The notes beneath the pieces were generated by a model. It was not told the DNA's origin and did not search any database. It saw nothing but the letters and a program-made list of their open reading frames with translations. A stretch of DNA of 64,000 bases from Candidatus Aenigmatarchaeota archaeon (lineage in GTDB: Archaea; Aenigmatarchaeota; Aenigmatarchaeia; QMZP01): assembly GCA_043824495.1 (NCBI GenBank), contig JBDRSV010000024.1, forward strand, positions 91,056 through 155,055, given 5' to 3'. Positions 16,997 through 37,696 of this stretch are shown piece after piece. The position numbers and the translations under genes were made by a program. Every line of letters starts with the position of its first letter. Position 1 is the stretch's first letter.

Positions 16997-17234
16997 GTCC
17001 CCTCCAGGATTGATTGTTAGAAAAAATACTAGTATAATCACTCTCGTTAATTGACATTTCTGTCTTTCGTTGTCGTAGAGTATTGATTCCTAAATTACAG
17101 ATGATGACTTTACCTCGAACAAGAATCTTGTGCCAGGTGCTAAAAGTTGTCAGCGATGATAAATGTGGAACATGATGCATAGAATTTAACCTAAAATTTT
17201 ATAAACCTATACAAAACCTTTTTATACCTCTTAA

Positions 17235-17639: not shown

Positions 17640-17660
17640 TTATTTTTTTTATCAGTTATT

Positions 17661-17681
17661 ATATCCCTTTAAATGGACAAT
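17661..17681 (+). repeat. Junction motif copy 2 (ATATCCCTTTAAATGGACAAT), at the left edge of a GC-rich block
   Basis: Forward orientation. A hairpin follows it on the GC side (GGGAGAGGTGCAG...CTGCACACTCTCCC). Confidence 0.6.
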
Positions 17682-17754: not shown

Positions 17755-19629
17755 TTACTTCAGAAGCGTCATCTTTTTGCTTTCCGTCAGGCTGGCCGTT
17801 TGCAACCGATAGAAGTACATACCGGACGCGACGGCCTTACCGTAGCGGTCGGTTCCGTCCCAGCTAACCTGATGTGTTCCTTCGGGCTGGGACCCGTTGA
17901 CGAGAGTGGCAACGTTGCGGCCGAGGATATCAAAGACCTCTAGCTTTACGTCTCCTCCCTGAGTCAACTGATAGGAAATCACGGTTCCGGCGTTGAAGGG
18001 GTTCGGGTAGTTCTGGTTCAAGCTGAATGATGTAGGAACGGCTCCTGTTGTCTTGTACGCGATGTTCAGCGTACCTAATGGAATCCACCCAGCCGGAACT
18101 GTCCGGCTGTTGTTGATCTCGTCAGCTATCGTTTTGGCCAACTCGTGATCGCCGAATGGATCGTCGATCAAGTTGTCGCAGTATGTTACCGCCTGTGACA
18201 CAGTCGCGCCGTCATCGCTAATCACAGCGGTTTGTGCCAGTTTGCCGCTAGCGACATTGAGTAGCAAAGCCATGAGTTGCTGTCTGGCTCGATCAATCAT
18301 GTCAACGCTGCCCTTGAGGTTCAGCAACGTCTTCGCGACTTCGAGCTTGTCTTCACAAAGATCCGACACGGGTGGATCGTACACGACGACCTCGTTCACT
18401 GCGTTCGAGTTGAAGTGGCCCGCGATGAGGTCGAGATAGCTACACAGAGTTGAAGCATCGATTTGCGCGCGGCCATTCCCACCAGTAGCGACGCCGACGT
18501 TGTGTTTCCAGAAGCCGATTGTTCGTTGTTCTCCAGCGTCTGACGGGCATCCCAATTCAAAGTCGATTTGGGCTGTGCCTTCACAATCGAGATCGACGGA
18601 CTGTTCGCTCGGAAATGCCGTATACCCGAGGGGGCCAACAAATGATACCATGTAGCTGGCCTCACCCGGGAGGTTCTCGAAATCGTAGTAACCGGCTTCA
18701 TCAGTCACAGCCGATTCTACAAGTACACCGGTGGCATCGAAGACATCAATCGTGATACCAAGAACAGAGCAGTCAGCACTCAGTGTGCCCTCAATTGCGG
18801 CGAAGCATTCTTCCTCTCCACCTCCGCATGCACACGTTCCATCTTCCACCTCAATGGCGGTGATGGTGTTGTCGTAGGCGTCCTTTGACCAGACGACGGT
18901 CAACGGCGCGAAGTTGATGACGTCGCATTCGAGATCCTCATCCCGACCACCGATCGTCGCGAAGTCACTGAGATACACGCCCGTTGTCTTGTCAATGCGA
19001 ACGATGTTGCCCAGACCATCGCGCCCGATGTAAAGGGTGTTCCCCGTCCCAACAATAACACCACTTATTCGATCCAGTGTATTGCCGGCCGCGTCGGTCG
19101 GATACAACGTTCCCAGATAGGCTCCCGAGCCCGCATCGAAGTGGTCAATGCCCGTTGATACATCATCGGAAACCCAGACACTGTTATCCGTCGCATCAAA
19201 GCCAATGCCGTCGATGAAACAGAAGCCCGGTGTTACCACAGAAAACTGGAAAGTGGCTACGCCGGTGGTGGGATCGATGAGATACACGTTCGCCGGACAT
19301 TCGTTGTCACTGCCTCCCCAGATCATGTTGCGCGTATTGTCCCATGCAATAGCGCCGATCGAAACTGGTGTGCCATCCGGTTTGAAAATGGAAACGAAGC
19401 CGAGATCGGTGCCGAATTTGTCTATCGAGTAGAGAGTTGGGTCGAAAGAGTTGGTGTAGAAAATCACACCATCACATCCAACTGCAACACCGATACCGAC
19501 ACCAGACGAGCTTGGAACAGGAACTGTGACGTTCGTGATGACATCACCGGGAGCTGCCATTGACGTAGCGGTGATAGCGGTGAAGAGGCAGAACACAACA
19601 AGCGCAGTGAAAGCTGTGAGACGCTTCAT
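17755..19629 (-). CDS. Large secreted protein with beta-propeller-like repeats, a carboxypeptidase-regulatory-like domain and a T9SS-type C-terminal sorting domain
   Basis: Signal peptide MKRLTAFTALVVFCLFTAITATSMA. The C-terminus NYPNPFN...VFDILGRNVATL...GMYFYRL matches the Por/T9SS C-terminal-domain consensus. GC-rich, bacterial (FCB-group-like). Confidence 0.7.
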   Translation of the reverse strand: MKRLTAFTALVVFCLFTAITATSMAAPGDVITNVTVPVPSSSGVGIGVAVGCDGVIFYTNSFDPTLYSIDKFGTDLGFVSIFKPDGTPVSIGAIAWDNTRNMIWGGSDNECPANVYLIDPTTGVATFQFSVVTPGFCFIDGIGFDATDNSVWVSDDVSTGIDHFDAGSGAYLGTLYPTDAAGNTLDRISGVIVGTGNTLYIGRDGLGNIVRIDKTTGVYLSDFATIGGRDEDLECDVINFAPLTVVWSKDAYDNTITAIEVEDGTCACGGGEEECFAAIEGTLSADCSVLGITIDVFDATGVLVESAVTDEAGYYDFENLPGEASYMVSFVGPLGYTAFPSEQSVDLDCEGTAQIDFELGCPSDAGEQRTIGFWKHNVGVATGGNGRAQIDASTLCSYLDLIAGHFNSNAVNEVVVYDPPVSDLCEDKLEVAKTLLNLKGSVDMIDRARQQLMALLLNVASGKLAQTAVISDDGATVSQAVTYCDNLIDDPFGDHELAKTIADEINNSRTVPAGWIPLGTLNIAYKTTGAVPTSFSLNQNYPNPFNAGTVISYQLTQGGDVKLEVFDILGRNVATLVNGSQPEGTHQVSWDGTDRYGKAVASGMYFYRLQTASLTESKKMTLLK

Positions 19630-20176
19630 GGATTTTTATTCCTTAGGTTGTGAGGGAAATATGACCCTCCGGGTTTGTTTTTCGATTAGTTTCTGATTGT
19701 TTGTCGTTTACCACGTTTCCAAGTTAAGGTCCGCGAATCGCTATTTTCATTGGCATCCTCTCTTTGGGTTAATGTTGTCCGCACAAATTGCGGGATTAAA
19801 AGAAGGAAAGACACAAAAGATAGAGTATGTCTTATGTAGACTGAGAGTAAAATCATTCGAAGAATAAAGCTAATACTATTAAAACAAACATGCATGTTTG
19901 ATGTGTTTCTTTTCATGTTTTTTGTGTTAGCCAATGTACCGTTTCTATGGTTAATTGGATTGATTGAGTTGCAATCAATACAAATTTAAATGATGTTCGA
20001 ATGAGTAGCATGATTTAAATTGTATACAAAAATTGACGTTGATTCATCGTCGTTTTTTTGTGTTTTGGTATTTTTTTTGATTCTAGCTTGTCGCTTTTGT
20101 CAAGTCTTTAACTCAAGTATATAGCTTACAGGTATTTAAATGTTTTCTAACACATTTTTTTTAATTTTCTTTCTTT

Positions 20177-20197
20177 TATCCCTTTAAATAGACATAT
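20177..20197 (+). repeat. Junction motif copy 3 (TATCCCTTTAAATAGACATAT), at the left edge of the ORF-free GC-rich region
   Basis: Forward orientation, followed by a weak AACGGGCG...CGCCCGTT inverted repeat with a ~38-nt loop. Confidence 0.55.
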
Positions 20198-23100
20198 AAA
20201 AAGGCAAACGGGCGAAGATTTGGAGCCAAACTCTTCTTGATGTCTCACCTCCGCCCGTTAAATGCCGTTGTCCGGCCTATCAATTTACCCGCCGGTTAGG
20301 TGAGCACATGTGCTCGTGTCCCAGAGGCGCATGTTTTCATGCCCTCCTTTGCCGGGTTCTTACGCGAACGTGCTGCTTGACCGAGATAATGTAGCTGCCA
20401 GATTCCCCACAACCTTGTTATTGGTGGAACCGCGACAGCGGTCGGTCCAGTCCGTATGCATCGTAGCCTCACTTGGTGAAGGACTGCGAATCAAGAGACG
20501 GGGATTCAGAAGAATCCCCGTCTCACGAGTTGACGGTTGGTACGAGATATATCAAAGGAAGTCTTTATGCCATTGGGTGCATTCCGAAACCTTTAGCCTC
20601 GTCCGTCTCCGAGGGATCCTATCAAAGGTTTCATAAAGGAAATTTCATGGACCTCGTTACGATAGGATCGGAGTGGCGTAAAGCCACGGCCAGAACCTCG
20701 AGGTCCCCCAGGATAAGATCACCGTTTGAATATGAGTCAGCGGTGAACGTAAGGGTGCTGGCGATTCTTCTTCGCATTCAAACCCTCCAGGGAACACTTC
20801 GTAATTTGTGTTGTCAGCGGCTGTTTACGAATCGGCGGTGATCGTTTCCACCACGGTACATGTCGGCGTGGTGACAAACGATGAAGAAGCGACTTCAAAA
20901 CGCGCGCGGCCATTGCTCGGCGGCGGCGAATGAGCCCAGGCATTGACGGCGGTCGCGGCGGTATTCATCCAGGAAGCGACCACTGGTGACCCGCGAAGGG
21001 TCGGTAATCGGTTCATAGAGCAAGCTCCATTTCTTCCGATAGGAAAATTCCAATCCACTTTACAAACTCTCGCCTAAACAGAAAGTATTGTCACATAACT
21101 TTCCGTCGCAAAAGAGAATGTGAAGAGGAAACAATTTCGTACACCTCGTCAAGAGATCGTCTCCATTTTCACCCTACATGGGCTAGGCGAGAGGATAGAC
21201 CAGTTGCTGATAGAGATGTAGAGGGAACCGTTTTCATCCGAAGATCTCTCCCGTCCCTCAGGGAGTAAGTTGCTCGTCCACCAGGTTCCCATACCAAGGG
21301 AGCTGGCAACTCTGCCATTCTCTCTATCCGACTCTCTGTTGTCATCGCCACTACGGCAACAACTCTTAGCCTATCCGGCGTAGGATTATGAGAGTGTAGA
21401 GCGAATTCCTCGTTCCATGTTTGTTCTGTATCGCTGCCTGTTATGATATCCAATCCTGAAAACGGGATTGGGTCAGCGGTATAAACAATACAGGAACCAT
21501 ATATGAGGTAGCAGAGTGTCATGATTCCCAGCATGACAACTCCTTACAAGGGCACATGGTTATATGGTAAATGCTCTCTCCGTCAACAAATCGTGCCCTC
21601 TAAGACATGTTTAGGAGAGAAAGGCGACAACTCATGAAGTGTTCTTCAGGTGGACCCGTCATCACTGTTATTGCGTTGACGGCCTTCTCCTTGACCCGGA
21701 CTTAGACGTGTGGCTTTCGGTGTTTTCGCGGCGCGTTTCTGCTGTTTTGGACTACGCTTCTTGTTGCTCGGAAGCCCGTCTCGGGCACCACCGTGACACG
21801 TCATGAAAGACCTCGTTTGTGAGGAGTTCAGTTCAAGCTTGTGCTGGAACTGTTTGGAACGAGGAATTGTTACTCTTTACGGCGAGCGATTGTGTGTCAT
21901 CGTAACTCCTTGACAATGGTTTCCACAAGCTCCAAAATAAAAAAGAGCTGTTGTTTTCAAATTCAGTTGGGAATCTCCTAGCCCGCCCCCAGAACTGACT
22001 AGAGGAGATCCCCAACTTTTGTACAGCGCACCCCGTGCATTGTTTTCAGGGTGGAGGGGCCCGGCGGTCAACTGAGCCCCTCACTGGACGAATCGGTCAC
22101 AGATAACATGTTACGCATTACCGACTCGAAATCTATGCCACGGCAGTAGATGGAAGTGGTCGCATCTACCGCCGGGCTTCACGACGTTGTGCATTTTGTC
22201 GCCTTCAGCCTTACACAACGCCGTTATTTCCCCACCCACAGGGAATTTAATATCGCGGGGCCTCACTCAGGAGACCCCGCTTCCGTTGGGTTTACTACCG
22301 AATTGTTCGGTAGCGTTCTTCCACGACAGACATACGCACATGCGCACGTCTTCATTTCTTTGAGGACCTACTCATCTCCGATTTGAGTAGGTCCTCGGCT
22401 CCCCACAACCCCCCGATCAGCACCGGGAATTTTTTTGAGGGGAAATCTGAGCAGATATCTCAGACTCCCCTCCCGTCAGGTCTACCGACCAGCACTTCCG
22501 GTTGGACGCCGGAAATTCTTTATTAGAAGGGGTTTCCCCTCTCCAAGAAACCCCTTCCTCTTCGGCGTAGCGCGTCTCACGCGCTTTAGTGCATCGATCC
22601 CCACCGATCAGGTAAAACCCTTGGATGGTTCTCTCCCCGAACCCCCACTGAAATATTTTGGAACCCCTCATAGATCCCCGTAATCTCCGAGAGGTTCCGA
22701 CAGCAGCACCATACAAATGGGACTACCGTGACAATCAAAAATACCGGAATCCACCGCGTCAGAAGAGGATTCCGGTATTCTACATCGCTGGTTGTGTTGA
22801 GAGCTTACCCCTTACTGGTCTTAACGAGTATGTTACGTCGGACTTCCTTTCACCAAATATACGGGTCACTACAGAATACCCGATCGATCCGCTTTGTTGT
22901 CTTAATCTCACCAGCGGATAGTGACGCGGTTACAGCCAGCGATTTCGCCTTTATACAACAGGCGTCTCCAAACCAAAATGGAAATTGGAGTTGTTGCTTC
23001 CACACTTCCGGATTTCCCCCTCCGGTAAACTCTAAGGTACTGATAGGTGACCGCTCGTGTTTCTTGTGTTCGCAATTGCCGATTGCATCAAGCTCTTCGT

Positions 23101-23949
23101 AGATCTAGATCTGGAAGTAATTAGCAAACGATCACAATAAACAGACAACTGGGAGAAGTCCATTTCTACCAGTACCTGGATTTTCTAACCCTCGGGAGGT
23201 GTGTACAAGCCTAAGCAGAGTTTGTCCTGTTGAATTGGCCCCGAGGGTAAGTGGCCTTCCGGAAGAGAATTGGTGAGGTCCTGTAACAGAACTCTATCTC
23301 ATTCCGGGGTAAAGCTCAAGGCACAGCCAGAAGGAGACGTATTACCTTGAGAAGTTGGTCTCCCGAGTGAAGAAATTCGAGATGTCCCATCGATGAAGGA
23401 CATCTCTTCTCCACTCGGGCTCATTCGTCAGCCTGGAAGGAGAAGTGCAAGAGTTTTCGCGCAATTACTCTCTCTCCTCCCGGGAAATTTATGACCTCCT
23501 GGTCCGAAACTTGTGCCGCGGTAAACCAGAAGGCGTAACTGCTAGGCTATGTGACGGCCACAGCAGTAGGGATCGAATCCAATACACGAAAGACAGCTAA
23601 GACTAACTCTGTCTCGTGTGGTTTACGAGTAAAATTCAGAAATCGATAGTCTTCGGCCTCTTCGAGGGAAACTGCTTAAGCGCTTAATTGCAGCGCGTTA
23701 TGTTTCCTGGTAAGTGACCTGTTCTCTAGGATGTACCGAAGGCTAACTTAGTTAGTCTCGGGAAATTCGCGTGTGATTGGTAGAAATGAAACATGAAATG
23801 TCCTTATATATAAATGTAATTTAATTACTTAAATAGGTTGATGGATAGCTTTAAAAAGGTACTATTAAAATTATTTTTTTGTGAAGGGATCGATATACCA
23901 AGTGCTTCCAAAAATAAAGAGTAGAAAAAAATAAGAGTGAAAAAAGCAA

Positions 23950-25992
23950 TTAACCAATGAATTCAACCTTTTCAAAACTGCCGTTTTCTTCAAATTTGTC
24001 TAATGTTGATACGAAAATTATTACTTTTTTCTTGTCTTCTTTACAGATTCTAGCTGCTTGTTGTATTACCATGTTCTTGATTCTGTCTGAAGCACATATG
24101 AAATGATTGCTTTGTTTCAAGTCCTGATAAATTAATTCTCTATCATCTGTGTCTTCAACCATTATAGTTAATTCTTTTCCATCGTTCTGTAAATATATTC
24201 TGTTACCTTCTTGTTCACTCTTCCATCCGACTTCATTAAAGGTCTGCATGATACCTGTTAAGTTCAATTCTTTTTTCTGTGTTGAGTTACCAAATTTATT
24301 AGTGAAAACTTTCTCTCCTATATTTGTAAGAAAGTAATAACATAATCTATTCTTCTTAACTTTAGCATCAGCTGAATCAACTAATCCGTTATAAGTTAAG
24401 TTCTCAACCTTTTTCTTGAAAGTTGCTCCTGACATTTTTACATTTGTGTATATCTGAGATGTGTAAGCAGCACTACCATTACCAATGGTTTTCATCATAG
24501 CCCACTCTTGTTCTCCTAAATCCTCAATTGGAAGAGAGTTTATGAATTCTTCTTCCTTTACTGGAGGAGGTGAGTAGCTATCTTCTTTAGCTATTCTGTC
24601 TTTCATGTGCTCTCTGATATCATCATCTACAATAGAGTTCTTAACCAGTTTAGCCTTGTCGAATTTTACAAGGAATGGTTCTGGGAAATTCATAGAGTGT
24701 CTCAAAAGCATGAAACCGTGACCTACTGGCAGTCTTCTTAGATACTTACCTTCTTCTCTAGAATCAAGACCAAGCATGTTTGAAGCGTCTTGAATATCTG
24801 AAGTATGTTTTGTATCCAAACCTAGATTCATGTATATATGAGTAGAAGTATTACCAATTGCTGGATATGAAACTAAAGATGGATGCTGATCTATGTATAT
24901 CATTCCTAATCCTAATTCTCTAATTTCTCTAAATATTAATTCTACAACGGTTTCTGATCCTAATTTGGCAGATTTTTCTCTGTTAAGAACATGATGAGCT
25001 TCTTCCATCACTATACATCCTATGACTTCTTCTTTTCCGCCTTCTACGAGTAACCAATCTCTTATCCACTGTAGAATTATTTCTATGATAAAGCTCTTAT
25101 CATTAACATCAAGAGCATCTAATTCTAGAATTGTTACCTTTCCTTTCTTGAAGAAATCAGATGGTTTTATACCTTCTACACAGTCGAATATATGACCTGT
25201 GTCTTTGAAGCATAATGACTCTAATGGTCTTTCAGCTGTTGCTAACCAGTTTCTTTCTCTTGTTGGCAGCTTACCTTCTGCATATTCTGCTAAGTAATCT
25301 TTAAGGTCAAACAGTGTTGGATTTTTCTTTTCCTTGAAAACTCCATCTAAAGCTTTCAAGATTACGTGTCTTCCACCACCGAGTAACCAGTAAGAATGAT
25401 CGAATATTGAAGAGAACTCTTTCATCCACTGTGTTTGACTAATTCCTTTAGGACCTTTCAGTGGATTGAATTTGAAAGGAGCTACGCCTCTTCCGATTGT
25501 GTAAATATCTATTTTGTCTTTAATTTTAGTTGATAGTAAATCTTTATAATTTCTCTTAGAGAAATCAAATATCAAAACAGGAATATCCTTTTCTGCTAAT
25601 TCTTCAATTAAGTTATATGAAATATTTGTTTTACCATAACCAGATGAACCAAATATTCCTATATGTGTAAGTAAGTTTTTCTCTTCTAGCATGATTGGAT
25701 ATAAACCCTTTCTTCCGTATAAAACATCACCTAATCTAATTGTTCCTTTAGCTGCTGCTTCTTGGCTAGGAGGTTCCATTAGTACTGTATCTCTTAGATC
25801 TTCATCAGCAGAAACTGCGGCTTTTATAACATCAAGTAGTTCGAAGATTCTTTGTCTTACATCTTCGTTTCCAACTAAGTAAGCTTTACTTAATCTCAAA
25901 GCTTTGTCTTTACCCAAGATTGGAGTAAGCTTCTTAATTTCATCTGCAATTAGTTTTTCTTGAATATTAATCATTTGTACCACCCAAATCAT
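23950..25992 (-). CDS. HerA/DUF87-like P-loop ATPase (FtsK-HerA superfamily) with a C-terminal wHTH-like extension
   Basis: Walker A GIFGSSGYGKTN and Walker B-like IVMEEAHHV. 680 aa, in an AT-rich archaeal-like segment. Confidence 0.7.
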   Translation of the reverse strand: MIWVVQMINIQEKLIADEIKKLTPILGKDKALRLSKAYLVGNEDVRQRIFELLDVIKAAVSADEDLRDTVLMEPPSQEAAAKGTIRLGDVLYGRKGLYPIMLEEKNLLTHIGIFGSSGYGKTNISYNLIEELAEKDIPVLIFDFSKRNYKDLLSTKIKDKIDIYTIGRGVAPFKFNPLKGPKGISQTQWMKEFSSIFDHSYWLLGGGRHVILKALDGVFKEKKNPTLFDLKDYLAEYAEGKLPTRERNWLATAERPLESLCFKDTGHIFDCVEGIKPSDFFKKGKVTILELDALDVNDKSFIIEIILQWIRDWLLVEGGKEEVIGCIVMEEAHHVLNREKSAKLGSETVVELIFREIRELGLGMIYIDQHPSLVSYPAIGNTSTHIYMNLGLDTKHTSDIQDASNMLGLDSREEGKYLRRLPVGHGFMLLRHSMNFPEPFLVKFDKAKLVKNSIVDDDIREHMKDRIAKEDSYSPPPVKEEEFINSLPIEDLGEQEWAMMKTIGNGSAAYTSQIYTNVKMSGATFKKKVENLTYNGLVDSADAKVKKNRLCYYFLTNIGEKVFTNKFGNSTQKKELNLTGIMQTFNEVGWKSEQEGNRIYLQNDGKELTIMVEDTDDRELIYQDLKQSNHFICASDRIKNMVIQQAARICKEDKKKVIIFVSTLDKFEENGSFEKVEFIG

Positions 25993-26515
25993 TAAAGATC
26001 TTTAAGATCTTATTTTCTGTTTGTAGTTGTTCCAGGAGCTCTCTTAGCTCTGTTTTTAATTCTAATCCATCTCTCCAAAAAAGAATATTTTCTTGTCTTT
26101 TTTCTTTTCTGAGAATAGAAACATCAAGTTTGAAATTTCTCTTTTCATCGATGTCTGTGATATGATTCATCATATCGTCTTTTTCTTCGATGTCTTCTTC
26201 AATTTCTTTTAAGAATGTTTTGTGGAGAACTTCTCTTTCTTTCATAGTGTTTTCAATTTCACTAACTCTTATTTGCAAGAATTCTACTTTATCGAATAAG
26301 CTTCCAATAACTAGAGGATCATCTCTTTTTAGAGCAGTGAGTTTACTTTCTTCAAATCTTGGCATTGATCTTTTCTTAATAATTTGAACTTCTCTAACTT
26401 CGGGTTCATCTAGATCAATCTCATCATGTCTAATTAAAGACTCACGTCTTCTCTTTTTTGTAATGTCTTCATACTCGTCAAGAGTTTTATAATAGGGTTC
26501 CATTAATCTGTCCAT
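25967..26515 (-). CDS. Coiled-coil protein, partner of the HerA-like ATPase
   Basis: Highly charged and heptad-rich (EIENTMKEREVLHKTFLKEIEEDIEEKDD...). Its stop overlaps the ATPase start, so the two form an operon. Confidence 0.5.
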   Translation of the reverse strand: MDRLMEPYYKTLDEYEDITKKRRRESLIRHDEIDLDEPEVREVQIIKKRSMPRFEESKLTALKRDDPLVIGSLFDKVEFLQIRVSEIENTMKEREVLHKTFLKEIEEDIEEKDDMMNHITDIDEKRNFKLDVSILRKEKRQENILFWRDGLELKTELRELLEQLQTENKILKIFNDLGGTND

Positions 26516-27377
26516 AATAATTACCTCGAGTGACCATTTGTCACTATCTGATAGTTAAAATATGTATAAAGGGTTTATAAAGCTTTCGGTTAGCTTGCAG
26601 TGTGCTGTTTTTGAGCGTAAAAATCGTGTACGAAAGACAATTTTCTTGGGTTTCCATGACTTTTGTGCCAACGAAAGACATATTCTGTCTTTAGTAAGAG
26701 AGTTAATAAAGATTTCTGTCTCGCGCCTTATAAAGGATCCGAATTGGATATTTTATATAGTAATTAATTACTATTGTAGAGATCTTTATTTACTTAAGTC
26801 TTTACATAAATAATTCTCAAATACTTTTTGTCTTTGCTAAAGTTTAATGCAGATTTTCCTCGAAACTTTTGTGGAAATTCTTGAAATCAAATGTCTTCTA
26901 GTTTTGCTAGAGCTTTTGAAGACATGGAAACTCTCATAAAACCCCAACCGAAAAGTATTTAAACCCTTTGACTATAATTTCACTATAGATTAGTGACAAC
27001 AAATTAAGAAATGTCTGAGTTATGTGTGGTGTCAAATCCTACATAACTATCTTTACAATCTACGCAACTTTGAATAAAAAGAATTTCGGGTTAAACTCGC
27101 AATTCTAAACTCAGAGAAATTGAGTGCACAGGAATTTAGGCGCGGCCTAAAATCCCCATAAGAAATCCAAAAAAATGACACGCTTTGTGTCAAAAAATGT
27201 GATTTGAGGGGGTTTGATTTCCTTAGCTCTGAGTATCTACTTTTCGAAAACCACGAAGACTCGCGTAACAATTCTAAGCAATAAATATAGTGAAATTCCA
27301 GACTTCTGTAGACTTTCGCTGTCTGACATAGAAATTAACAAGTTGACAATAAACGGAAACTTCTGGGAGGGATTGTC

Positions 27378-27740
27378 ATGAGAAATATCATGAGCTGTGT
27401 TTTCCTGCTGCTCACATTATTCCTGGTGAGTTGTGCGAAAAGTGGTCCGGAGCTGGGGAGTGATATCCGGATCAGTGGAACAATCGTCGACATGAGCGAA
27501 GGAGGTAGTAGGGATTTCCTGATCCAGTCCGGAGGAAAACTCTACCATTTCGGTACTCGACTGCAATTTAAATGGAGTAAACTTCGTGCGGGACATTACG
27601 TCACCGTGGATGGGAAGTTTGGGGGACCGTGCGAGGAAGCCTCAATGTTCAGACGCTACATGTACGACGACGAAGGGAACTTCATCAAGTCCCTCGAGGT
27701 CTATGACATCATCCATGTTTCGAACGTGGAGAGGCAGTGA
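27378..27740 (+). CDS. Putative lipoprotein (hypothetical)
   Basis: MRNIMSCVFLLLTLFLVSCAKS is a lipobox signal. A TTGACAATAAAC promoter-like element lies ~35 nt upstream. Confidence 0.5.
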   Translation: MRNIMSCVFLLLTLFLVSCAKSGPELGSDIRISGTIVDMSEGGSRDFLIQSGGKLYHFGTRLQFKWSKLRAGHYVTVDGKFGGPCEEASMFRRYMYDDEGNFIKSLEVYDIIHVSNVERQ

Positions 27741-28240
27741 TCCCACTGAGTTCATCCAATTCATCGGGTGGACCCAGATGAGATTATTGTCTAAAGGCTA
27801 AATCAGCAGGCCTTGAATTGTTGGTAGGGATCATTGGAAGATTCCCAAAAACATGGCAAGGAGGGCAACATGTCGCAGGGAACCAAAAACACCAAAGACA
27901 CAGGAACAAGAGCGTTTCTGGTTATCGACGGAACTACAGGAGACCTCATTCCTGTGAAAGCATCGTCTGGACGAAAAGCTGAGCAAATCGCCGGCAGCGT
28001 AACCAGACAATCCCGCAAATAAAATTACCCACTGTGAATTCCCCAGGAGTATCATCCGCCCGGAAGATACTCTGTTCTCCCCCATACTACCATAGGCCAC
28101 ACGGAGCTCATCAGGTTTTCACTTGGTGGGCTCCAGTGAGATCTTTGGTGGTTAACGTTCCATAACCGTTTCATTCACAACCTTTTGCCGACCTTGTCTG
28201 CATTGCAGCTCAAGGAAGTGTGTAAAGGAAGGAGAGTGTC

Positions 28241-28942
28241 ATGTTATTGCATGTAACAGTAATAAGCCGCGGAGACAGAACAACGATCGATGTTCCCAGA
28301 ACAGAATTCAACTGGGATACCAATCAATGTCGCGTAGTTGAAGGTGCAGAGGAAGCTGAAAGAAATCTCGGGGTGGCGGAGAATCTCGAAATCCGTAAAC
28401 CCGCGGCTTACCAGGGACCCTATTTATACTGTATTGTAGAGGTGGGGTTCGAGGAAATTTGTTTTCCCCCGACTTTCCTCAAGTGGATCGAGAATGTTCC
28501 CGAGGATGAGAAAAGAGCCATCCTTATCGTTCCCACCAAAACCATCCGAAAGGCCGATGATAGTCACTATATGGGATCTATAGATCGTTATAGGTATTAT
28601 CCTCATGGTGAAGTCTTCCTGATTGGTCGCAGAATCATCGTGAGGAACATCTACCTATCACCTGATAACATCAAGATGGTGGTGGATAAAATCCTTGCCC
28701 GACTGAGTGACGGCCTGTTCCTCCGGTTGGCCTTTGAGTTTCTCCAGGCTACGCCGATCAGTGACAATCCTACGGTGACTGGAGAACATATCACCATGTT
28801 GGATAATCTCTTCACGGGGACGCGTTCCCTTCGGAGAGGAGATTCAACTCGTCGCGAACGGTTCAATCATGTTCGGGCCGTGATTGGACATATGGCCAAA
28901 CACGGGATAGTTCTGTCTGGCAAGATCGAACCCGTGAAGTAA
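28241..28942 (+). CDS. Hypothetical protein
   Basis: Preceded by a strong SD (AAGGAAGGAGAG). The upstream leader is conserved with the one before 32758. GC-rich. Confidence 0.5.
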   Translation: MLLHVTVISRGDRTTIDVPRTEFNWDTNQCRVVEGAEEAERNLGVAENLEIRKPAAYQGPYLYCIVEVGFEEICFPPTFLKWIENVPEDEKRAILIVPTKTIRKADDSHYMGSIDRYRYYPHGEVFLIGRRIIVRNIYLSPDNIKMVVDKILARLSDGLFLRLAFEFLQATPISDNPTVTGEHITMLDNLFTGTRSLRRGDSTRRERFNHVRAVIGHMAKHGIVLSGKIEPVK

Positions 28943-28983
28943 TCAACGGCTTGGAAACCAAGTCAAATCAACGACAATGAAAG

Positions 28984-29316
28984 TTGAGGTGTAATATGAA
29001 TAGGCGAATACAGAGTATGATTGTGATGACTGCGACTTTGATAGCTGTTGCAGTCTTTCTCCAAGTCTCACAGCTTCACGCGGCACATTTGATGGCAACC
29101 GCAATTGCAATTGCGGTTGTGGTGATGATCGTTGTTAACATGGGAAGAGTTCCCAACACTCGGCAGAAGTTTCGGAACTTCTCTGTCGGAGCCGTTTTCG
29201 GGAGCATCTTCCTGTGGGAGTTGTTCAAGGTTACGTTCTTGAATCACCCTGCGGCTCTTTGGAGTGTGGTTGTACTCGGAGCTGCGGCAGTCTCATTTCT
29301 GACGTTCCGCCGGTAG
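28984..29316 (+). CDS. Small membrane protein (hypothetical)
   Basis: Three hydrophobic helices. Confidence 0.4.
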   Translation: MRCNMNRRIQSMIVMTATLIAVAVFLQVSQLHAAHLMATAIAIAVVVMIVVNMGRVPNTRQKFRNFSVGAVFGSIFLWELFKVTFLNHPAALWSVVVLGAAAVSFLTFRR

Positions 29317-29387
29317 TACTGAAGTTCACCGGGGATCCCGATCAATCTGGTTGGGATCCCCTCAACCTGACAATAAACTGTTGTTAA

Positions 29388-30233
29388 ATGTTCCATTACA
29401 CCAAGGAGGGCGCAATGCGTCACCAACGTTTCATCACCACAGTACTGGCACTCATGTTCTTGACTGTGCCGGCAATGTTCAGCAGTGCGGTTCTGGCCGA
29501 TCCGATTTCATCCGGAGACGGTCAAATGTATGTGGTCCAACAGGGAGATTGGTTGACGCGGCCGATCATCCCGACACTCTACTCGGATGTGTTGAAGCCA
29601 GGCGACTTGAAGAGTGCTCTCTGGATCGCTGACATCTTCGATACACTCAACATTAACATCACCCACCGCGACAAAATTCGGGCGTATGATACCATCATGG
29701 CGCCGTCATTCGCGGCGTTGAAGAAGTACAAACATCTCGCACCCGCCGACGTGGTCATCAACCTGTTCGCCACGTATGATATCGCGTCCATGGAACTTGT
29801 GGACGCCGAGTTTGTAAGAAAGCGCATCGAGGACTTTGAGGGTACTTACTGGTACAAAAATCGAGCCGCGTGGGCCCGAATTTTCGGAGTCGGTAATGGC
29901 ACGTATGTCTGCGGTGACACCGTGATGCCGTTCTCATGGTTCATGAGCTGCAATACGGACGGTAATACGGGAATGACTATCTCCATCTCCATGGACGAAG
30001 GAGATCTCACCGCAGTTCGCAAGGTTCCAGGTACACGTAACGGATTCTGGGGAGCCAGTCGTGACAATAAGTTCACATACGTGGGCTTCGGCAACGACTG
30101 GATCGATCGTTGCGACTGGAATGACGAGACCGAGAGCTGGGACATTCCACCAGTTCTGAATGAGATCGTCGGAACTCTCAACAACTTTCCATTCGTCCAG
30201 TATATGACCGTCGTCGCGTACGAACTGGAATAG
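29388..30233 (+). CDS. Secreted protein, paralog A (hypothetical)
   Basis: Signal peptide and TM region. The C-terminal region (FSWFMSCNTDGNTGMT) resembles the FAWVAWTNTDGNLQF region of the next gene. SD CAAGGAGGG. Confidence 0.55.
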   Translation: MFHYTKEGAMRHQRFITTVLALMFLTVPAMFSSAVLADPISSGDGQMYVVQQGDWLTRPIIPTLYSDVLKPGDLKSALWIADIFDTLNINITHRDKIRAYDTIMAPSFAALKKYKHLAPADVVINLFATYDIASMELVDAEFVRKRIEDFEGTYWYKNRAAWARIFGVGNGTYVCGDTVMPFSWFMSCNTDGNTGMTISISMDEGDLTAVRKVPGTRNGFWGASRDNKFTYVGFGNDWIDRCDWNDETESWDIPPVLNEIVGTLNNFPFVQYMTVVAYELE

Positions 30234-30294
30234 TTGTTACAGGGGATCCTGACCAATTCGGTTGGGATCCCTTCAACTTGACAATTAACGTAAC

Positions 30295-31659
30295 ATGTTA
30301 ACAATGAATACCAACAGAGAAGGAGAAAGTCAAATGTGTAACATCATCATCCGTACCATCGTGGCACTGGCACTCATGGTTCTGATCGTGCCGGCCATCA
30401 CCAACATCGCAATTGCGGACGGAACGCCGTGTGGTCTCACCGTAGGTAATGGCAACGACATCGATCGCGACTTCGTTGCATTCCTCAACAAAGAAGGAAT
30501 CAGATGGTTAACAATCGAGGAATTCGTTGAGTGCTACTCCCAACTGATCGGTCCAGGTAGTACCATGTTGAGCACCACTCGGGGATATGGCTGGGGATAT
30601 ATTGACGTTCCTTTCAAGTTTGGCGATTCGGTCGCGTCTATAGTGAACATGGAGATCATGCCAGGCGTCCGGATCAATATGGCTTGGGATCAAGCGGTCA
30701 TCTTCTACAAATATGCGAATAATCATGGAATGCATATTCTGAAGAAGACGGAGAATGACCGTGAGGTTCCGGCCTGGAGCGGCTTGATTGATGAAGCTAC
30801 GGTGCGTCAACATGTCAACGGCTTCGAAGTGTCCGCGCAGATTCCGAGTGATGTTCTGGAATCGGATGTTGCGATTATCCGGATGCGAGATTTAAAGGAC
30901 GCCTACTTGGCCGAGAACACCGACGTTATCGAGTCTTACCTCATCGAGAAGTTTGACCTCGACGACGATTCCGAGCCGTATTCTGACAATCGGCCAAATA
31001 TATTTCATCGCAGTGGCGAAGTCTTACTGGACTCGGAGATGTTCTTCGTGTATGAAGGTCTGGAAATTCTCAATCTCATCATCAATGATCGGTGGATTGG
31101 TGTACGATTCCCCGGATCGACCTATATCCACTTCATCAACATCGGACCGAGAAAAGTCCACGACTTGAATGCCAACTTCGTCGAGACGAAAACTCCGAAC
31201 AACACCGGCGGTCAGATCAGTATCCCGCAGGATGTGATCGAAAAGATGACGTGGATCGATTCCGTCTATTCGGATAGGATGTCCCCGAATCCGATGTTAG
31301 GTTTCGGAAACGGTGAGTACCTGGCGAGCTCTGGGATCGTTTCGTTCGCGTGGGTTGCCTGGACCAACACCGATGGCAACCTCCAGTTCTATCTCAATGT
31401 TCTCCTTAACATTGATCATCAGGTGACGATCGAGACTGTGTCTCACTACGGTGGGCCTGATGTTTGGAGGGCGTGGAGTCCGAATCAGACCTGCACAGAG
31501 GTGGAGACTGGAAACGGCTGGTGTTATATTCACTGTTCCCAGTCGGAAAGTGGACCTCGAATCTGCGACTATAGACAAGCCTTGGACGATGCAGTCGCGG
31601 CGTTCAATGGCATCGATTTCTTCACGAACATGAAGGTGATCATGTACACGGTGAAGTAA
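30295..31659 (+). CDS. Secreted protein, paralog B (hypothetical)
   Basis: Signal peptide and TM region (IIIRTIVALALMVLIVPAI). Shares the C-terminal module with paralog A, and has the same hairpin-plus-TTGACAAT upstream module. Confidence 0.55.
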   Translation: MLTMNTNREGESQMCNIIIRTIVALALMVLIVPAITNIAIADGTPCGLTVGNGNDIDRDFVAFLNKEGIRWLTIEEFVECYSQLIGPGSTMLSTTRGYGWGYIDVPFKFGDSVASIVNMEIMPGVRINMAWDQAVIFYKYANNHGMHILKKTENDREVPAWSGLIDEATVRQHVNGFEVSAQIPSDVLESDVAIIRMRDLKDAYLAENTDVIESYLIEKFDLDDDSEPYSDNRPNIFHRSGEVLLDSEMFFVYEGLEILNLIINDRWIGVRFPGSTYIHFINIGPRKVHDLNANFVETKTPNNTGGQISIPQDVIEKMTWIDSVYSDRMSPNPMLGFGNGEYLASSGIVSFAWVAWTNTDGNLQFYLNVLLNIDHQVTIETVSHYGGPDVWRAWSPNQTCTEVETGNGWCYIHCSQSESGPRICDYRQALDDAVAAFNGIDFFTNMKVIMYTVK

Positions 31660-32092
31660 AGCCGAACGCCACGAATTACTAATCCGCTCTTCTTCCCAAA
31701 GAAGTGTGGCTAGTGTGAAAGGAGTATGGGAAGGTTCCACAGTAGTAGCATCAACGGCAAAAAGTAAAAGACAAAAAAATGAAGGCCAAACCCGAGGAGG
31801 AACTCGAAGTGAAGACGAAACGAAGGTCATGCCAATATCCCATTTCGCCCATGATGGCGACTCATATTCTCATAGTCTGACCGGCCGCCGGCGACGCCAC
31901 GGGCCTCTTATATAGTTAGCGGGGCCCATCGCCAATGCAGTCAAAATCCCGGGTAGGCTTCAACCCCTACCCGGGGTTCCAAATGAGCTCATCTAGTTCA
32001 GATATTTTCTAGGTGGGCCCATTTGGAATTGTAAATGATTGTTGACTGTTCAATGAGCGTTCCGAAAGGAACATTGCAAGGAGATTTTTATC

Positions 32093-32557
32093 ATGACACA
32101 GCAGATGACATCAGTACCAGATGGTTGGGGCGGAGCAGGTGGCGACAGTCTCGGCACAGATGCACTCGAGCTTCTGAAGAAAATGGGATTCGACAATGCA
32201 ATGGGACAAGCGTTGCTCGGCAGCTTTAATCCACAGGGTTTCGTGGATGCGCTTCTCACGTTCCGACCGTTCCCGGTTGGCGGAGTCTCTCCCGAAGCTC
32301 GGAACGAGAGCAGAGAAGCTCAGTGGATTTATCTCACATGGATCTTCACCAGTCGGCAGAGAGCCTCCTTTCCCGTCGAAGGGGTGAGTGGCCTTGCTGA
32401 CTTCGTGGATATTGTCCGGAAAGCACAGAGCGATGCGGACGCGAACGAACATGCAGTTCGAATCTTGTCCAGGTTTGGGTGTGTCGATCTCCTCGTTGGT
32501 GAAGGTCGGACCTTCTTGCACACGAAAGCCATCGATTTCGCTAATTCCCAAACGTAA
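32093..32557 (+). CDS. Hypothetical protein
   Basis: Complete 154-aa ORF flanked on both sides by the repeated intergenic hairpin module. Confidence 0.45.
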   Translation: MTQQMTSVPDGWGGAGGDSLGTDALELLKKMGFDNAMGQALLGSFNPQGFVDALLTFRPFPVGGVSPEARNESREAQWIYLTWIFTSRQRASFPVEGVSGLADFVDIVRKAQSDADANEHAVRILSRFGCVDLLVGEGRTFLHTKAIDFANSQT

Positions 32558-32757
32558 GTCCGCGACATCACCAACCAATCCCGGGAACAAGACAGTTCAA
32601 TCTGTTCCCGGGTTCCAAATGAGTTCATGTGGTTTGATTTCTTGACTAGGTGGGCTCATTTGGAATTGAGTTGTAGTAGAACCATAACCCATTCACGACC
32701 TTTTGTCGACCCTGTCTGATATCAGTTCAGGGAAGAATCTAAAGGAAGGAGAATTCA

Positions 32758-34749: not shown

Positions 34750-34830
34750 GCGTGTAGTTATCATTCACACCCCGCCTGGATTCAATTCCAGGCGGGGTTG
34801 ATCATGAAATAAAGAGAAGGGGAGTGTACC

Positions 34831-36874: not shown

Positions 36875-36935
36875 GGCGAATTCTGACCAAAAACCCTTGC
36901 ATTGATTTATATTCCTTTCCAACTAATTCTTTCCT

Positions 36936-37589: not shown

Positions 37590-37696
37590 TTCAAATCTAT
37601 TTTCAGTGTCAAACAAACCTATTTAAATAAAACAGACCACTTTCTATTGGAACTAATTAAATATATACCAACTGAAACCAATAATTAATAGTTCAT

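Follow-up and report, generated by a model that had tools for sequence, protein, structure and literature searches.

A two-gene operon for a HerA/FtsK-type ATPase and a helical hairpin partner in Aenigmatarchaeota

The gene pair and its surroundings

The genes described here lie in a MAG of Candidatus Aenigmatarchaeota (DPANN), within a stretch of 64,000 nucleotides (the window) that was analysed as a whole. Two genes on the minus strand, the first encoding a small partner protein and the second an ATPase, form a genuine two-gene operon (Table 1). The NCBI protein of the same contig (P0001) is 100% identical to the ATPase and has 674 residues (MINIQEKL...); its start codon, the annotated ATG, is preceded by GGTGGT. 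Residues are numbered throughout in the 680-residue frame. With the annotated start, the stop/start overlap of the two genes is 8 nt (ATGATTAA), and with the first in-frame ATG it is 26 nt, so the overlap reported in the first-pass annotation holds for either ATG. The two genes are probably translationally coupled. An identical gene arrangement was recovered in the Logan assembly of run SRR26275509, making an assembly chimera unlikely.

Table 1. Features of the operon and its adjoining DNA (window coordinates)
Feature	Position	Strand	Details
Partner gene	25967-26515	-	182 aa, ORF listing
ATPase gene	23950-25974	-	674 aa from annotated ATG at 25974
ATPase gene, first in-frame ATG at 25992	23950-25992	-	680 aa
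ATPase, N-terminal three-helix bundle	25807-25974	-	Residues ~7-62; DSSP of model
ATPase, FtsK/HerA-type RecA-like core	24643-25740	-	Residues ~85-450; invariant columns, Foldseek
ATPase, winged helix-turn-helix, MarR/Lrp type	24283-24546	-	Residues ~483-570; PDB profile matches, model
ATPase, C-terminal alpha/beta domain	23953-24270	-	Residues ~575-680; model, hhalign to distant family
Palindromes ACTATCAGATAGT and AGTGACAAATGGTCACT, overlapping	26529-26555	-	Just 5' of partner start codon
Putative BRE/TATA, CCGAAAGCTTTATAAA	26574-26589	-	~60-75 nt 5' of partner ATG
Motif GTCTTTCGT, two copies	26630-26638, 26671-26679	-	5' of operon
Motif GTCTTTCGT, third copy	23586-23594	-	356 nt beyond ATPase stop codon
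Oligo-T tracts (TTTTTT, TTTTTTT, TTTTT)	23911-23946	-	Right behind ATPase stop codon

Co-transcription of the partner and ATPase genes is suggested by their overlap, by the BRE/TATA-like element 5' of the partner gene and by the T-tracts that follow the ATPase stop codon. The element CCGAAAGCTTTATAAA, presumably the operon promoter, is seen again 5' of the partner gene at many loci, where TATA words are also overrepresented. Archaeal transcription terminates at oligo-T, and the T-tracts are likely to be the terminator of the operon. Both palindromes fall within an arm of an inverted repeat of 54 nt (26538-26591 and 26946-26999), and another locus (L001) has a related one, ACTATTAAATAGT.

The repeated motif, ACGMAAGAC in its general form, has five matches in the window against 0.79 expected. 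In addition to those of Table 1, copies lie 5' of other genes, at 17062 and 59094. Over 82 loci there are 45 matches in the 250 nt before the operon (bin -250 to 0) and only about 0.02 to 0.03 per locus per 250 nt elsewhere, an approximately 20-fold enrichment 5' of the chromosomal operon; the 8-mer ACGAAAGA has 33 occurrences where 1.5 would be expected (P ~1e-32). Taken over all loci, a secondary peak (nine matches in the +2750 bin) lies just 3' of the ATPase gene. The distant relatives described below do not have the motif. The upstream copies are candidates for an operator or a loading site. Any regulator might bind them, such as the PadR of the nearby synteny block.

The pair has a GC content of 32.9%, close to the ~34% of the window backbone (4500-12900 and 36900-55000). 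It stands between GC-rich blocks of ~50%, as had been seen from the first reading: 53.7% at 17755-19629, 50.4% at 20200-23700 and 49.4% at 27378-35835. The flanking genes include one for type IIG restriction-modification, a PD-(D/E)xK gene and one for a transposase. From the lack of any counterpart in 86 related loci (DNA and tblastx comparison), a CpG observed/expected ratio of ~1.0-1.2 against 0.4-0.5 in the backbone, and a T9SS-type sorting domain within 17755-19629, the GC-rich flanks are judged to be foreign, genome-specific insertions unrelated to the pair.

Directly downstream of the pair, the ~3.5 kb of 20200-23700 are not only GC-rich but also hairpin-rich and free of ORFs. More speculatively still than the reading of the pair developed below, this region could be a large structured RNA whose function is tied to the pair.

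Architecture of the ATPase and its partner

Assignment of the ATPase to the FtsK-HerA superfamily, made in the first-pass annotation, is secure. Pfam DUF87 matches at 6.3e-13 (49.8 bits, above the gathering cutoff of 23.2) and HerA (4d2i) is the best sequence-profile match of the family in the PDB (3e-8). Foldseek comparison of the structure model (pLDDT 82) with the PDB gave DndH-C, HerA, VirB4, TdpA and TrwB (E 1e-12 to 1e-6; 11-20% identity), with SIR2-HerA also among the closest folds. The Walker A (GSSGYGKTN, residues 115-123) and Walker B (IVMEEAHH, 327-334) motifs named in the same annotation are present, and they are invariant across 42 homologs. GSSGYGKT, EEAHH (330-334), the arginine-finger candidates R355 and R358 and the sequence DQHPS (368-372) were found in 42/42; in profile alignment, the last has H where the HerA 'SQRP' motif has R. 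Beyond the superfamily level, no match to the ATPase family was obtained in Pfam, PADLOC, NCBIfam, PHROGs or PDB sequence and fold searches.

The motor core, which has a helical insert at residues 186-280, is the most conserved part of the protein, with a mean pairwise identity of 70% against 42% for the winged helix-turn-helix (wHTH). The N-terminal helical bundle (56%) occupies the place of the HerA HAS-barrel, and the profile alignment with HerA 4d2i starts only at profile position 74. No transmembrane segment was found in either protein family: the maximum Kyte-Doolittle(19) value is at most 1.52 (1.10 for the ATPase itself) and exceeds 1.6 in 0/42 ATPase and 0/39 partner family members.

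A poorly conserved linker, modelled with low confidence, connects the motor to the wHTH. This domain is the wHTH-like C-terminal extension anticipated earlier, and it is seen both in the model and in profile matches to LrpA (1i1g, 7e-4) and a MarR-type regulator (6jbx); the segment is also matched by PADLOC CARF3 models, NCBIfam Sta1/Lrs14 and phrog_11046. Its invariant residues among 42 homologs are S512, I514, Y515, S521, G522, F525 and K544.

The C-terminal domain, modelled with an alpha-beta-beta-beta-alpha-beta pattern, pairs in hhalign with the H/E/D/ExE-GK domain of a family of distant relatives, and the two families (alignments A1 and A3, respectively) align over their full length (E = 2e-121). 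In the distant family the catalytic columns are kept, with D in 36/36 and ExE in 33-35/36. In the ATPase family the D column holds T or I, one ExE column holds M or I, and the other has E in only 14/42. Full-length homology together with loss of the D/E columns indicates that the C-terminus is a PD-(D/E)xK homolog which has kept its fold and lost its catalytic residues.

The partner had been described as a highly charged coiled-coil protein, and this it is: 44.5% of its residues are D, E, K or R, and it is modelled as a disordered charged tail (residues 1-72), within which a stretch MPRMEE..PLKR is conserved, followed by an antiparallel two-helix hairpin (73-118 and 122-178, pLDDT ~95). Its homologs (41-61% identity) all come from Aenigmatarchaeota-type MAGs, and G71, F74, R83, E86, R126, D131, S133, L135, R136, W147 and D149 are invariant in their alignment (A2). 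No specific relative of the partner was found in Pfam, PADLOC, NCBIfam, PHROGs or PDB sequence and fold searches, so the two proteins make a pairing as unfamiliar as it had first seemed. An effector domain was sought in Pfam, PADLOC and NCBIfam with no match; the model is of a hairpin.

Conservation of the pair and its distant relatives

The partner gene lies upstream of the ATPase gene, on the same strand, in 82/82 sources with at least 500 bp of upstream sequence, and the divergence of one protein follows that of the other (r = 0.85); the pairing of ATPase and hairpin partner is obligate. Each of the 80 genome loci belongs to a different assembly, and almost all of these assemblies carry the label Aenigmatarchaeota or DPANN. 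The usual synteny is L7Ae/S28e/L24e-PadR-inositol-1-P synthase, then the pair, then ArgRS. The ATPase matches or exceeds the adjacent ArgRS in conservation, with identities of 51-68% where those of ArgRS are 34-64%, and at deep divergence it is the more conserved of the two. Across 86 Aenigmatarchaeota loci the partner and ATPase genes are the only ones shared. The pair is therefore a core trait of Aenigmatarchaeota, strongly conserved and passed on vertically, and is under very strong purifying selection.

Some mobile-element flavour remains, since in one locus (L006) the pair is in a different housekeeping context and not in its usual syntenic position, unrelated cargo genes stand between partner and ATPase in ~9/81 loci, and both flanks of the pair vary between genomes. 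The first-pass annotation had implied an accessory or defence-type island. That picture has not survived, as the pair is part of the native backbone, lineage-wide and in a syntenic housekeeping position. It had also named two things that would speak against its view, of which one, a conserved housekeeping context, is found here and the other, clear placement of both proteins in a known apparatus for conjugation or partition, is not.

The distant relatives are abundant and have the same partner pairing and ATPase-wHTH architecture, with an intact nuclease signature. A partner-like gene lies upstream in 58/69 of their loci (in locus L087 it matches the partner HMM at 4e-13). Pfam DUF87 matches 36/36 distant relatives and FtsK_SpoIIIE matches nine of the 36 weakly, and a few members touch the Hjc, AHJR-like or REase models of Pfam. 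Recurrent neighbours are genes for Cdc6-like proteins (27 loci) and tyrosine recombinases (23 loci), and the contexts look like those of integrative elements. The Aenigmatarchaeota module would then be the exapted form, with a dead nuclease, of a far more widespread two-gene module, and apparently derives from a mobile element; the direction, from mobile element to chromosome, is read from a single trait, the loss of the catalytic residues.

Integrases and Orc1/Cdc6-like genes are among the companions listed for 'dark matter islands' in the excerpts of PMC4158269, and they are the same as those of the distant relatives. However, the description given in those excerpts is generic, unlike the specific module architecture found here. 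The literature passages drawn on here, themselves excerpts, make no mention of the hairpin partner, of a wHTH and PD-(D/E)xK fusion or of a nuclease-dead chromosomal derivative in Aenigmatarchaeota.

Proposed role and comparison with known systems

As a rule, ATPases of the FtsK/HerA superfamily assemble into hexameric rings through which double-stranded DNA is pumped, and this one presumably also forms a hexamer and translocates DNA. The reading preferred here, tentatively and with confidence just short of balanced, is that the pair is an exapted, soluble, site-targeted translocase of double-stranded DNA for chromosome maintenance, encoded by a native operon that is conserved across Aenigmatarchaeota, and not a defence system. 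The wHTH, on its flexible linker, would target the motor to specific DNA sites. For this presumed interaction the best candidate target is ACGMAAGAC, 5' and just 3' of the operon, which would also give autoregulation. The ring would use ATP to translocate or remodel chromosomal double-stranded DNA, with the hairpin partner as its stoichiometric regulator or adaptor. The process served may be segregation, resolution or repair-linked DNA processing.

A bolder form of this proposal, which must be called doubtful, is a lineage-specific chromosome-handling motor in which the soluble ring is loaded at ACGMAAGAC by its own wHTH, in a centromere- or KOPS-like manner, and gated by the hairpin subunit, which would plug or clamp it, while the dead nuclease holds DNA. 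If true, archaea would have a new type of apparatus for DNA segregation or resolution, and the pair would be a clear example of a mobile-element gene domesticated in DPANN archaea.

Conservation within the ATPase bears on a further, unlikely explanation: that the protein is an ATP-dependent transcription regulator or nucleoid organiser, whose wHTH binds ACGMAAGAC of a small regulon and whose ring serves to switch or remodel and does not translocate processively. Many homologs are labelled MarR/HxlR-type regulators by JGI, the wHTH residues are conserved, and the motif stands 5' of the pair's own operon and of other genes. Nevertheless, the ATPase core is more conserved than the wHTH, all motor motifs are invariant, including the arginine-finger candidates, and the ancestor of this architecture was an ATPase-nuclease enzyme.

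It is slightly less likely still that the pair has a mobile-element function, either still mobile or a relic, as the module for partition, replication or transfer of an old integrated element that became fixed in the lineage. The repeats would then be centromere- or iteron-like and would serve this element, not the cell. The links of the distant relatives to Cdc6-like initiators and tyrosine recombinases would fit, as would the motif repeated 5' of the operon, which resembles a par-locus layout, and the insertion hotspots on both flanks; cargo genes, too, can enter the operon. Against this, neither an integrase nor a Cdc6-like nor any other element gene is a recurrent neighbour of the pair across the 86 Aenigmatarchaeota loci, the ATPase family is absent from IMG/VR, and no full-length relative was found in the plasmid and phage collections PLSDB and INPHARED. 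The very strong purifying selection, the syntenic position across deep divergence and the inactivated nuclease also argue against an element function. Known partition loci, which consist of an NTPase, a centromere-binding protein and upstream repeats, share with the operon the repeats beside it. However, the ATPase is of HerA/FtsK type, not ParA, ParM or TubZ type, and the CbiA/ParA P-loop model gave only a weak match (15 bits, below the cutoff of 25.4).

SIR2-HerA/Nezha, DUF4297-HerA, TdpAB and DndFGH likewise combine a HerA-like ATPase of similar fold with a co-encoded partner. A defence system of this kind, in which the ATPase senses or threads foreign DNA and the partner is an adaptor, is improbable here, despite close folds in DndH-C, TdpA and SIR2-HerA, weak partial matches of the ATPase to the PADLOC HerA and mad8 models (1e-9 to 6e-11) and restriction-modification, PD-(D/E)xK and transposase genes in the window flanks. 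The restriction-modification and transposase genes nearby are part of insertions peculiar to this genome, and the NCBIfam equivalogs score far below their cutoffs (HerA_antiphage 36 bits against 800; a second equivalog 15.5 against 850). As in anti-phage HerA systems, a nuclease works with the motor in the distant relatives, but here it is fused in cis and intact, and these genes are also found near DUF6602/YLATT, PLD/MZB/helicase and RmuC genes; in the pair the nuclease domain has no catalytic residues and the partner no SIR2, DUF4297 or other effector domain. Moreover, the pair is inherited as a core gene, syntenically and vertically, and is conserved like one; defence genes show the opposite pattern, being patchily distributed and quick to evolve.

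CedB, CedD and VirB4 have an ATPase domain of the HerA/VirB4 clade in common with this protein; CedD is its best NCBIfam match (7.7e-17), and the VirB4 (TM-score ~0.7 on target) and TrwB folds are similar. A motor for transfer of DNA or macromolecules at the DPANN symbiont-host interface, importing or exporting DNA in the manner of Ced, Ted or T4SS, could explain the foreign islands on both sides of the pair in this genome but is the least probable explanation, given that the CedD match (61.1 bits) falls far below its cutoff of 600, transmembrane segments are lacking from both protein families, the islands differ in every genome, and no CedA/VirB6-type, membrane-channel or pilin gene recurs beside the pair across 86 loci. 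The transmembrane segment and VirB4-like N-terminal domain by which CedD is defined, according to the excerpts of PMC11868833, are absent here, where the N-terminus is the helical bundle.

Small antiparallel coiled-coil hairpins co-encoded with ring ATPases also occur as 'stalk' proteins (FliJ/YscO/CdsO of type III secretion, F1 gamma and V-type subunit D). YscO and CdsO are among the fold matches of the partner, with no significance (E at least 0.48) and mixed with generic coiled coils (Skp, SMC arms and Vipp1). The ATPases served by these stalks belong to a superfamily other than FtsK-HerA; the likeness is one of analogy only.

With HerA-NurA, the archaeal helicase-nuclease of DNA end resection (Saccharolobus HerA, 4d2i), the pair shares an FtsK-HerA core with a helical insert and an operon with a smaller partner. 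In the ATPase model the HAS-barrel of HerA is replaced by the helical bundle, a wHTH and a dead PD-(D/E)xK domain are added, and the partner is a helical hairpin and not the NurA nuclease. NurA usually shares an operon with Mre11/Rad50; no NurA or Mre11/Rad50 genes occur in the annotated neighbourhoods of the pair, and NCBIfam HerA_Thermprot gave 25.7 bits, below its cutoff of 800.

FtsK/SpoIIIE belongs to the same superfamily, has a motor followed by a C-terminal winged helix and is inherited as a core cellular gene. The FtsK gamma domain reads KOPS sites. The Pfam FtsK_SpoIIIE and FtsK gamma models do not match the window ATPase at E ≤ 1; this protein has no N-terminal membrane domain and its wHTH is of MarR/Lrp type. 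It is also set apart by its obligate hairpin partner and the dead nuclease domain at its C-terminus.

The gene pair and its upstream motif

Both overlapping minus-strand ORFs were found exactly where the first-pass annotation had placed them. Its length of 680 aa for the ATPase holds when counted from the first ATG, but the NCBI protein from the same contig (P0001, 100% identical) has 674 aa and starts at the ATG at 25974, with GGTGGT just before it. From this start the ATPase gene overlaps the partner TAA by 8 nt (ATGATTAA), and by 26 nt from the first ATG, so the described overlap of stop and start is real. The same arrangement was recovered in the Logan assembly of run SRR26275509. A BRE/TATA-like element ahead of the partner gene, together with T-tracts after the ATPase stop codon, suggests that the pair is likely to form a bicistronic operon. 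A 54-nt inverted repeat copies the promoter and palindrome region of the operon in divergent orientation, facing the GC-rich insertion. In the related locus L001, the side corresponding to its divergent arm is occupied by a divergently transcribed 469-aa gene.

The motif GTCTT(T/G)CGT / ACG(A/C)AAGAC is present in one to four copies upstream of the partner gene in genomes of 31% to 65% GC, and some copies form perfect inverted pairs (in locus L019, TGTCTTTCGTTA-N7-TAACGAAAGACA). Within 250 nt upstream, 45 occurrences were counted over 82 loci, compared with about 0.02-0.03 per locus per 250 nt elsewhere, with a second, lower peak immediately beyond the ATPase gene at its 3' end. In a de novo search for enriched 8-mers, ACGAAAGA came top, with 33 occurrences where 1.5 were expected (P about 1e-32). 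The window itself has five copies (0.79 expected), of which the intergenic ones away from the pair hint at a small regulon. The motif looks like the operator of a dimeric transcription factor and the ATPase's own winged helix-turn-helix (wHTH), whose helix residues are invariant, is a candidate for binding it. As a feature common to the distant family of ATPases described below the motif was rejected (no match in 61 loci).

Features of the window and of related loci (window positions, unless residues or a locus are named)
Feature	Position	Strand	Details
ArgRS	11267-12952		window backbone
Motif copy GTCTTTCGT	17062-17070	+	upstream of conserved Zn-ribbon gene 17235-17639
48-nt direct repeat (...TTATCCCTTTAAATRGACA)	17632-17679 and 20147-20194		73% identity
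Gene with T9SS-type sorting domain	17755-19629	-	624 aa; 53.7% GC
ORF-free stretch	20200-23700		about 3.5 kb; 50.4% GC; no ORF above 124 aa
Hairpin chain within it	21900-22800	-	z = -11.3
Motif copy	23586		356 nt past ATPase stop
ATPase gene	23950-25992	-	680 aa counted from first ATG
N-terminal three-helix bundle	residues 2-62		AlphaFold model
RecA-like core	residues ~85-450		AlphaFold model; helical insert 186-280
Linker between core and wHTH			AlphaFold model; low confidence
wHTH	residues ~483-570		AlphaFold model
Alpha/beta C-terminal domain	residues ~575-680		AlphaFold model; alpha-beta-beta-beta-alpha-beta pattern
Partner gene	25967-26515	-	182 aa
54-nt inverted repeat	26538-26591 and 26946-26999		74% complementarity; 354 nt apart
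BRE/TATA-like element CCGAAAGCTTTATAAA	26574-26589		ahead of partner gene
Motif copies	26630; 26671
GC-rich block	27378-35835	+	49.4% GC; eight same-strand genes
Weak paralogs within it	29388-30233 and 30295-31659
Right-side island	36936-45038		between partner gene and conserved backbone
PD-(D/E)xK nuclease gene	36936-37589		right-side island
Type IIG restriction-modification enzyme	39330-42056		right-side island; 908 aa; Eco57I, N6_Mtase, TaqI_C domains
DDE transposase	44028-45038		right-side island
Inositol-1-P synthase	47035-49560	-	window backbone
L7Ae	52130-52516		window backbone
YchF	55363-56547		window backbone
Motif copy GTCTTTCGT	59094-59102	-	upstream of unannotated 300-aa gene 58128-59030
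Cargo between partner and ATPase genes	L006:7300-8004; L061:2855-5742; L020:5081-5824; L066:5076-6002		core-family loci, among others
Structured downstream regions	L042:8020-9560; L001:12050-14330; also L059, L010		core-family loci
Distant module	L134:2051-12952; L100:6679-11991; L125:1226-6287		examples among L087-L170; order: 119-aa gene, hairpin partner, ATPase-wHTH-PD-(D/E)xK fusion

Domain structure and the nuclease domain

The ATPase has both proposed motifs, Walker A (GSSGYGKTN) and Walker B (IVMEEAHH), and its assignment to the FtsK-HerA superfamily was upheld by HMM search (Pfam DUF87, the HerA central domain, E = 6.3e-13). The PADLOC HerA and mad8 models and the NCBIfam CedD and HerA models matched weakly, the NCBIfam bit scores lying far below the curated cutoffs (CedD 61 against 600, HerA_antiphage 36 against 800, HerA_Thermprot 26 against 800). 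The family profile matched Saccharolobus HerA (4d2i) at 3e-8. In the AlphaFold model (pLDDT 82) five regions can be distinguished, including the wHTH-like extension that had been predicted, and the C-terminal part of the family profile matches Lrp/MarR-type regulators. Foldseek of the model against PDB gave DndH-C, HerA, HerA-NurA, TdpA, VirB4, SIR2-HerA and TrwB, all at 11-20% identity; as judged from the model, fold similarity is at superfamily level and to no specific clade. Walker A, EEAHH, R355/R358 and DQHPS are invariant in 42 core-family homologs.

The partner, annotated as a highly charged coiled-coil protein, is modelled as a disordered charged tail (residues 1-72) followed by a confidently predicted antiparallel helical hairpin (73-118 and 122-178, pLDDT about 95), in keeping with that description. 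Searches of Pfam, PADLOC, NCBIfam, PHROGs and PDB sequences found nothing for it, and when 5.8 billion proteins were searched with its profile, every match lay within the family. PDB profile search and Foldseek of the model gave no outside relative, the fold matches being generic coiled-coil hairpins (all E > 0.1).

A profile search of 1.84 billion cluster representatives with the ATPase gave 431 matches at E ≤ 1e-30. These split into the core family, above about 600 bits, and a long tail of 650-700-aa proteins aligning through the wHTH. Profile-profile comparison of the 42 core homologs with 36 tail members gave E = 2e-121 over 645 columns, covering N-domain, motor, wHTH and C-terminal domain. 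In this distant family the C-terminal domain has an intact PD-(D/E)xK signature (H, E and D each in 36/36, ExE in 33-35/36, then a conserved T-G), with the consensus EIETGKS at the nuclease motif, and a few members touch Pfam Hjc, AHJR-like or REase models. In the core family the D column is T or I; of the two ExE columns, one is M or I and the other shows E in just 14 of 42 sequences. Because the catalytic columns kept in the distant family have been lost, the alignments indicate that in the chromosomal family this domain is nuclease-dead and that the dead form is the derived one.

Metagenomes gave at least 551 matches to genes of the distant type, and the genomes that carry such genes range from 29% to 64% GC. 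Of 69 evaluable loci, 58 have a partner-like gene immediately upstream of the ATPase gene, and in L087 the partner HMM matches it at E = 4e-13. Genes that recur nearby are one coding for 119 aa, upstream of the partner (28 loci), one for an Orc1/Cdc6-like AAA+ protein (27 loci; Cdc6_lid at 1e-15) and one for a tyrosine recombinase (23 loci; Phage_integrase at 3e-28). Among the genes seen in single contexts are ArdC-N/MPTase, DUF2958, RmuC and others of defence type. No tRNAs were found at these loci and a single peptide pattern found no distant-family member in IMG/VR. This uncharacterised distant module might represent a new integrative-element family, or else a system that such elements carry. 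Its contexts agree with the generic account of HerA-like ATPases in integrated elements of archaea (arCOG00280; PMC4158269). The passages of literature consulted contain no mention of a hairpin partner, a wHTH-nuclease fusion or a chromosomal derivative. The pairing was likewise not found described in literature on DPANN with DUF87 or Aenigmarchaeota with HerA.

Distribution and genomic context

The window comes from a Ca. Aenigmatarchaeota MAG, and a scan of one genome per GTDB species gave 86 relatives. The 80 loci kept each belong to a separate assembly (80 in all). Almost all of these assemblies carry the label Aenigmatarchaeota or another DPANN label, and a few are evident mis-binnings. 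Wherever 500 bp or more of upstream sequence was available (82/82 sources), the partner gene precedes the ATPase gene on the same strand, and in most cases the two overlap or abut; in the five sources lacking a partner match the upstream sequence is missing. The usual gene order is YchF - TP_methylase - L24e/S28e/L7Ae - PadR - inositol-1-P synthase ... partner-ATPase ... small Zn-ribbon gene - ArgRS. The window shares this backbone, but additional DNA is inserted to the left and right of the pair. Against the same genomes, identity was 51-68% for the ATPase and 34-64% for ArgRS, and at deep divergence the ATPase is clearly more conserved. Pairwise divergences of partner and ATPase are correlated (r = 0.85, 2,485 pairs). 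The core family is essentially absent from IMG/VR (one marginal fragment), and neither PLSDB nor INPHARED has a full-length relative. One locus per assembly, obligate pairing, synteny, strong conservation and absence from virus and plasmid sets thus mark a core function passed on vertically and do not fit a defence island.

Unrelated cargo genes, mostly on the same strand, separate partner from ATPase in about nine of 81 loci and are also unrelated to each other. That of L006 encodes a protein with a JAB/MPN-like HSHP...S..D motif, and the cargo of L061, which lies on the opposite strand, looks by eye like a toxin-antitoxin pair of AbiE type. The window's myo-inositol-1-phosphate synthase (841 aa, against 360-440 aa in relatives) is split by an intein with a LAGLIDADG homing endonuclease. 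A tRNA integration hotspot behind the variable downstream flank was rejected, since no more than about 10 of 60 loci have a tRNA close to the pair and these tRNAs differ in identity.

The contrast between an AT-rich pair and GC-rich blocks, to which the first-pass annotation drew attention, is genuine, but it is the flanks that are foreign. The pair has 32.9% GC, backbone stretches of the window about 34%, and in other genomes the pair matches local GC content. The three GC-rich stretches showed no DNA or tblastx similarity in the 86 related loci, and their CpG observed/expected ratio is 1.0-1.2 compared with 0.4-0.5 in the backbone; the pair is therefore a native operon between foreign insertions. 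On the left, a gene with FlgD-Ig, SdrD-B and T9SS-type C-terminal sorting (Por_Secre_tail) domains, a bacterial-looking secretion signal in a DPANN archaeal contig, is probably foreign DNA. The 48-nt direct repeat sits at the AT-to-GC boundary of this gene unit and of the ORF-free block, and could be the edge of an insertion or a regulatory element common to the two. The genes of the right-hand block encode signal-peptide or lipobox proteins with no Pfam match.

The ORF-free stretch, which lies immediately 3' of the ATPase gene, has a much stronger tendency to fold than shuffled sequence. In sliding windows, mean z is -1.9 on the plus and -2.4 on the minus strand (minimum -8.6), compared with -0.3 to -1.2 in coding controls. 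Its strongest part is a chain of distinct near-perfect hairpins, and perfect hairpins whose stems reach 9 bp or more number five, against 0.2 expected. Rfam gave no match at gathering thresholds across the window and none at E ≤ 1 on 19400-24100. An rRNA operon was rejected, there being also no tRNAs and no 16S/23S signature motifs, as was an alternative genetic code, since single stop-codon reassignment opened no long ORF. The block has no codon-position GC signal, no paralogy to other GC-block genes and no homolog in related loci, and its hairpin sequences are absent from IMG/VR. Some relatives, about 10-15 of 63, also show unusually strong structure in gene-poor regions just downstream of the ATPase, with mean z as low as -4.2; overall, 23% of windows have z < -2, compared with 5% in coding sequence, the ATPase coding strand being the more negative. 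A shared downstream ncRNA was ruled out by all-vs-all blastn, which found similarity only between close relatives and none with the window's block. Either a large structured RNA or foreign DNA rich in hairpins could account for the window's ORF-free stretch.

Function and relation to known systems

Archaeal chromosome segregation and resolution are poorly understood, and in the minimal genomes of DPANN archaea strongly conserved genes of unknown function stand out. The reading best supported, though held tentatively, is that the pair is an exapted, nuclease-dead, site-targeted dsDNA translocase of FtsK/HerA type that would act with its obligate hairpin subunit in chromosome maintenance. Identity and evolution are the firmer parts of this reading and function the less firm; we infer hexamer formation, translocation, partner contacts and wHTH specificity.

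An ATP-dependent regulator or nucleoid factor is unlikely, as the motor is the most conserved part of the ATPase (mean pairwise identity 70% in the core, compared with 56% in the N-domain, 42% in the wHTH, 33% in the C-terminal domain and 26% in the linker). That the pair is a relic partition or replication module of a mobile element is somewhat less likely again, since no element genes recur with it. A third conserved gene was rejected, clustering of all neighbouring ORFs across loci recovering only the pair and antisense shadow ORFs. A known plasmid or phage gene was likewise rejected, PLSDB and INPHARED giving ATPase-domain matches alone (23-30% identity over about half of the query), as was virus origin, PHROGs matches being at superfamily level alone. 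The defence role implied by the first-pass annotation is improbable, since distribution and conservation contradict it, as do the dead nuclease and the lack of an effector domain in the partner. Least probable is a motor for symbiont-host DNA transfer, as neither protein family has a transmembrane segment.

The translocase reading makes the pair an example of exaptation from mobile elements, and the analysis puts right the tempting but mistaken annotation of a defence system. The pair is a lineage-core module, uncharacterised and strongly conserved, which carries a clear signature of domestication and comes with a DNA target that can be tested. Purifying selection on the two genes is at least equal to that on an aminoacyl-tRNA synthetase, their architecture of motor, DNA-binding domain, dead nuclease and hairpin partner is readable, and the chromosomal module is complemented by an abundant sister family in integrative elements that is, by signature, nuclease-active. 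Together with the candidate DNA target, these features yield the testable hypothesis of a lineage-specific DNA-handling machine.

The ATPase belongs to the DUF87/HerA class at superfamily level. Examination of homolog neighbourhoods, as the first-pass annotation had proposed, revealed a conserved housekeeping context, but the pair does not show the defining features of HerA-NurA, of anti-phage HerA systems or of CedB/CedD/VirB4. In ancestry the ATPase resembles HerA-nuclease machines. The defining features of FtsK are absent too, yet it is FtsK, a motor with a C-terminal winged helix, whose logic is most alike.
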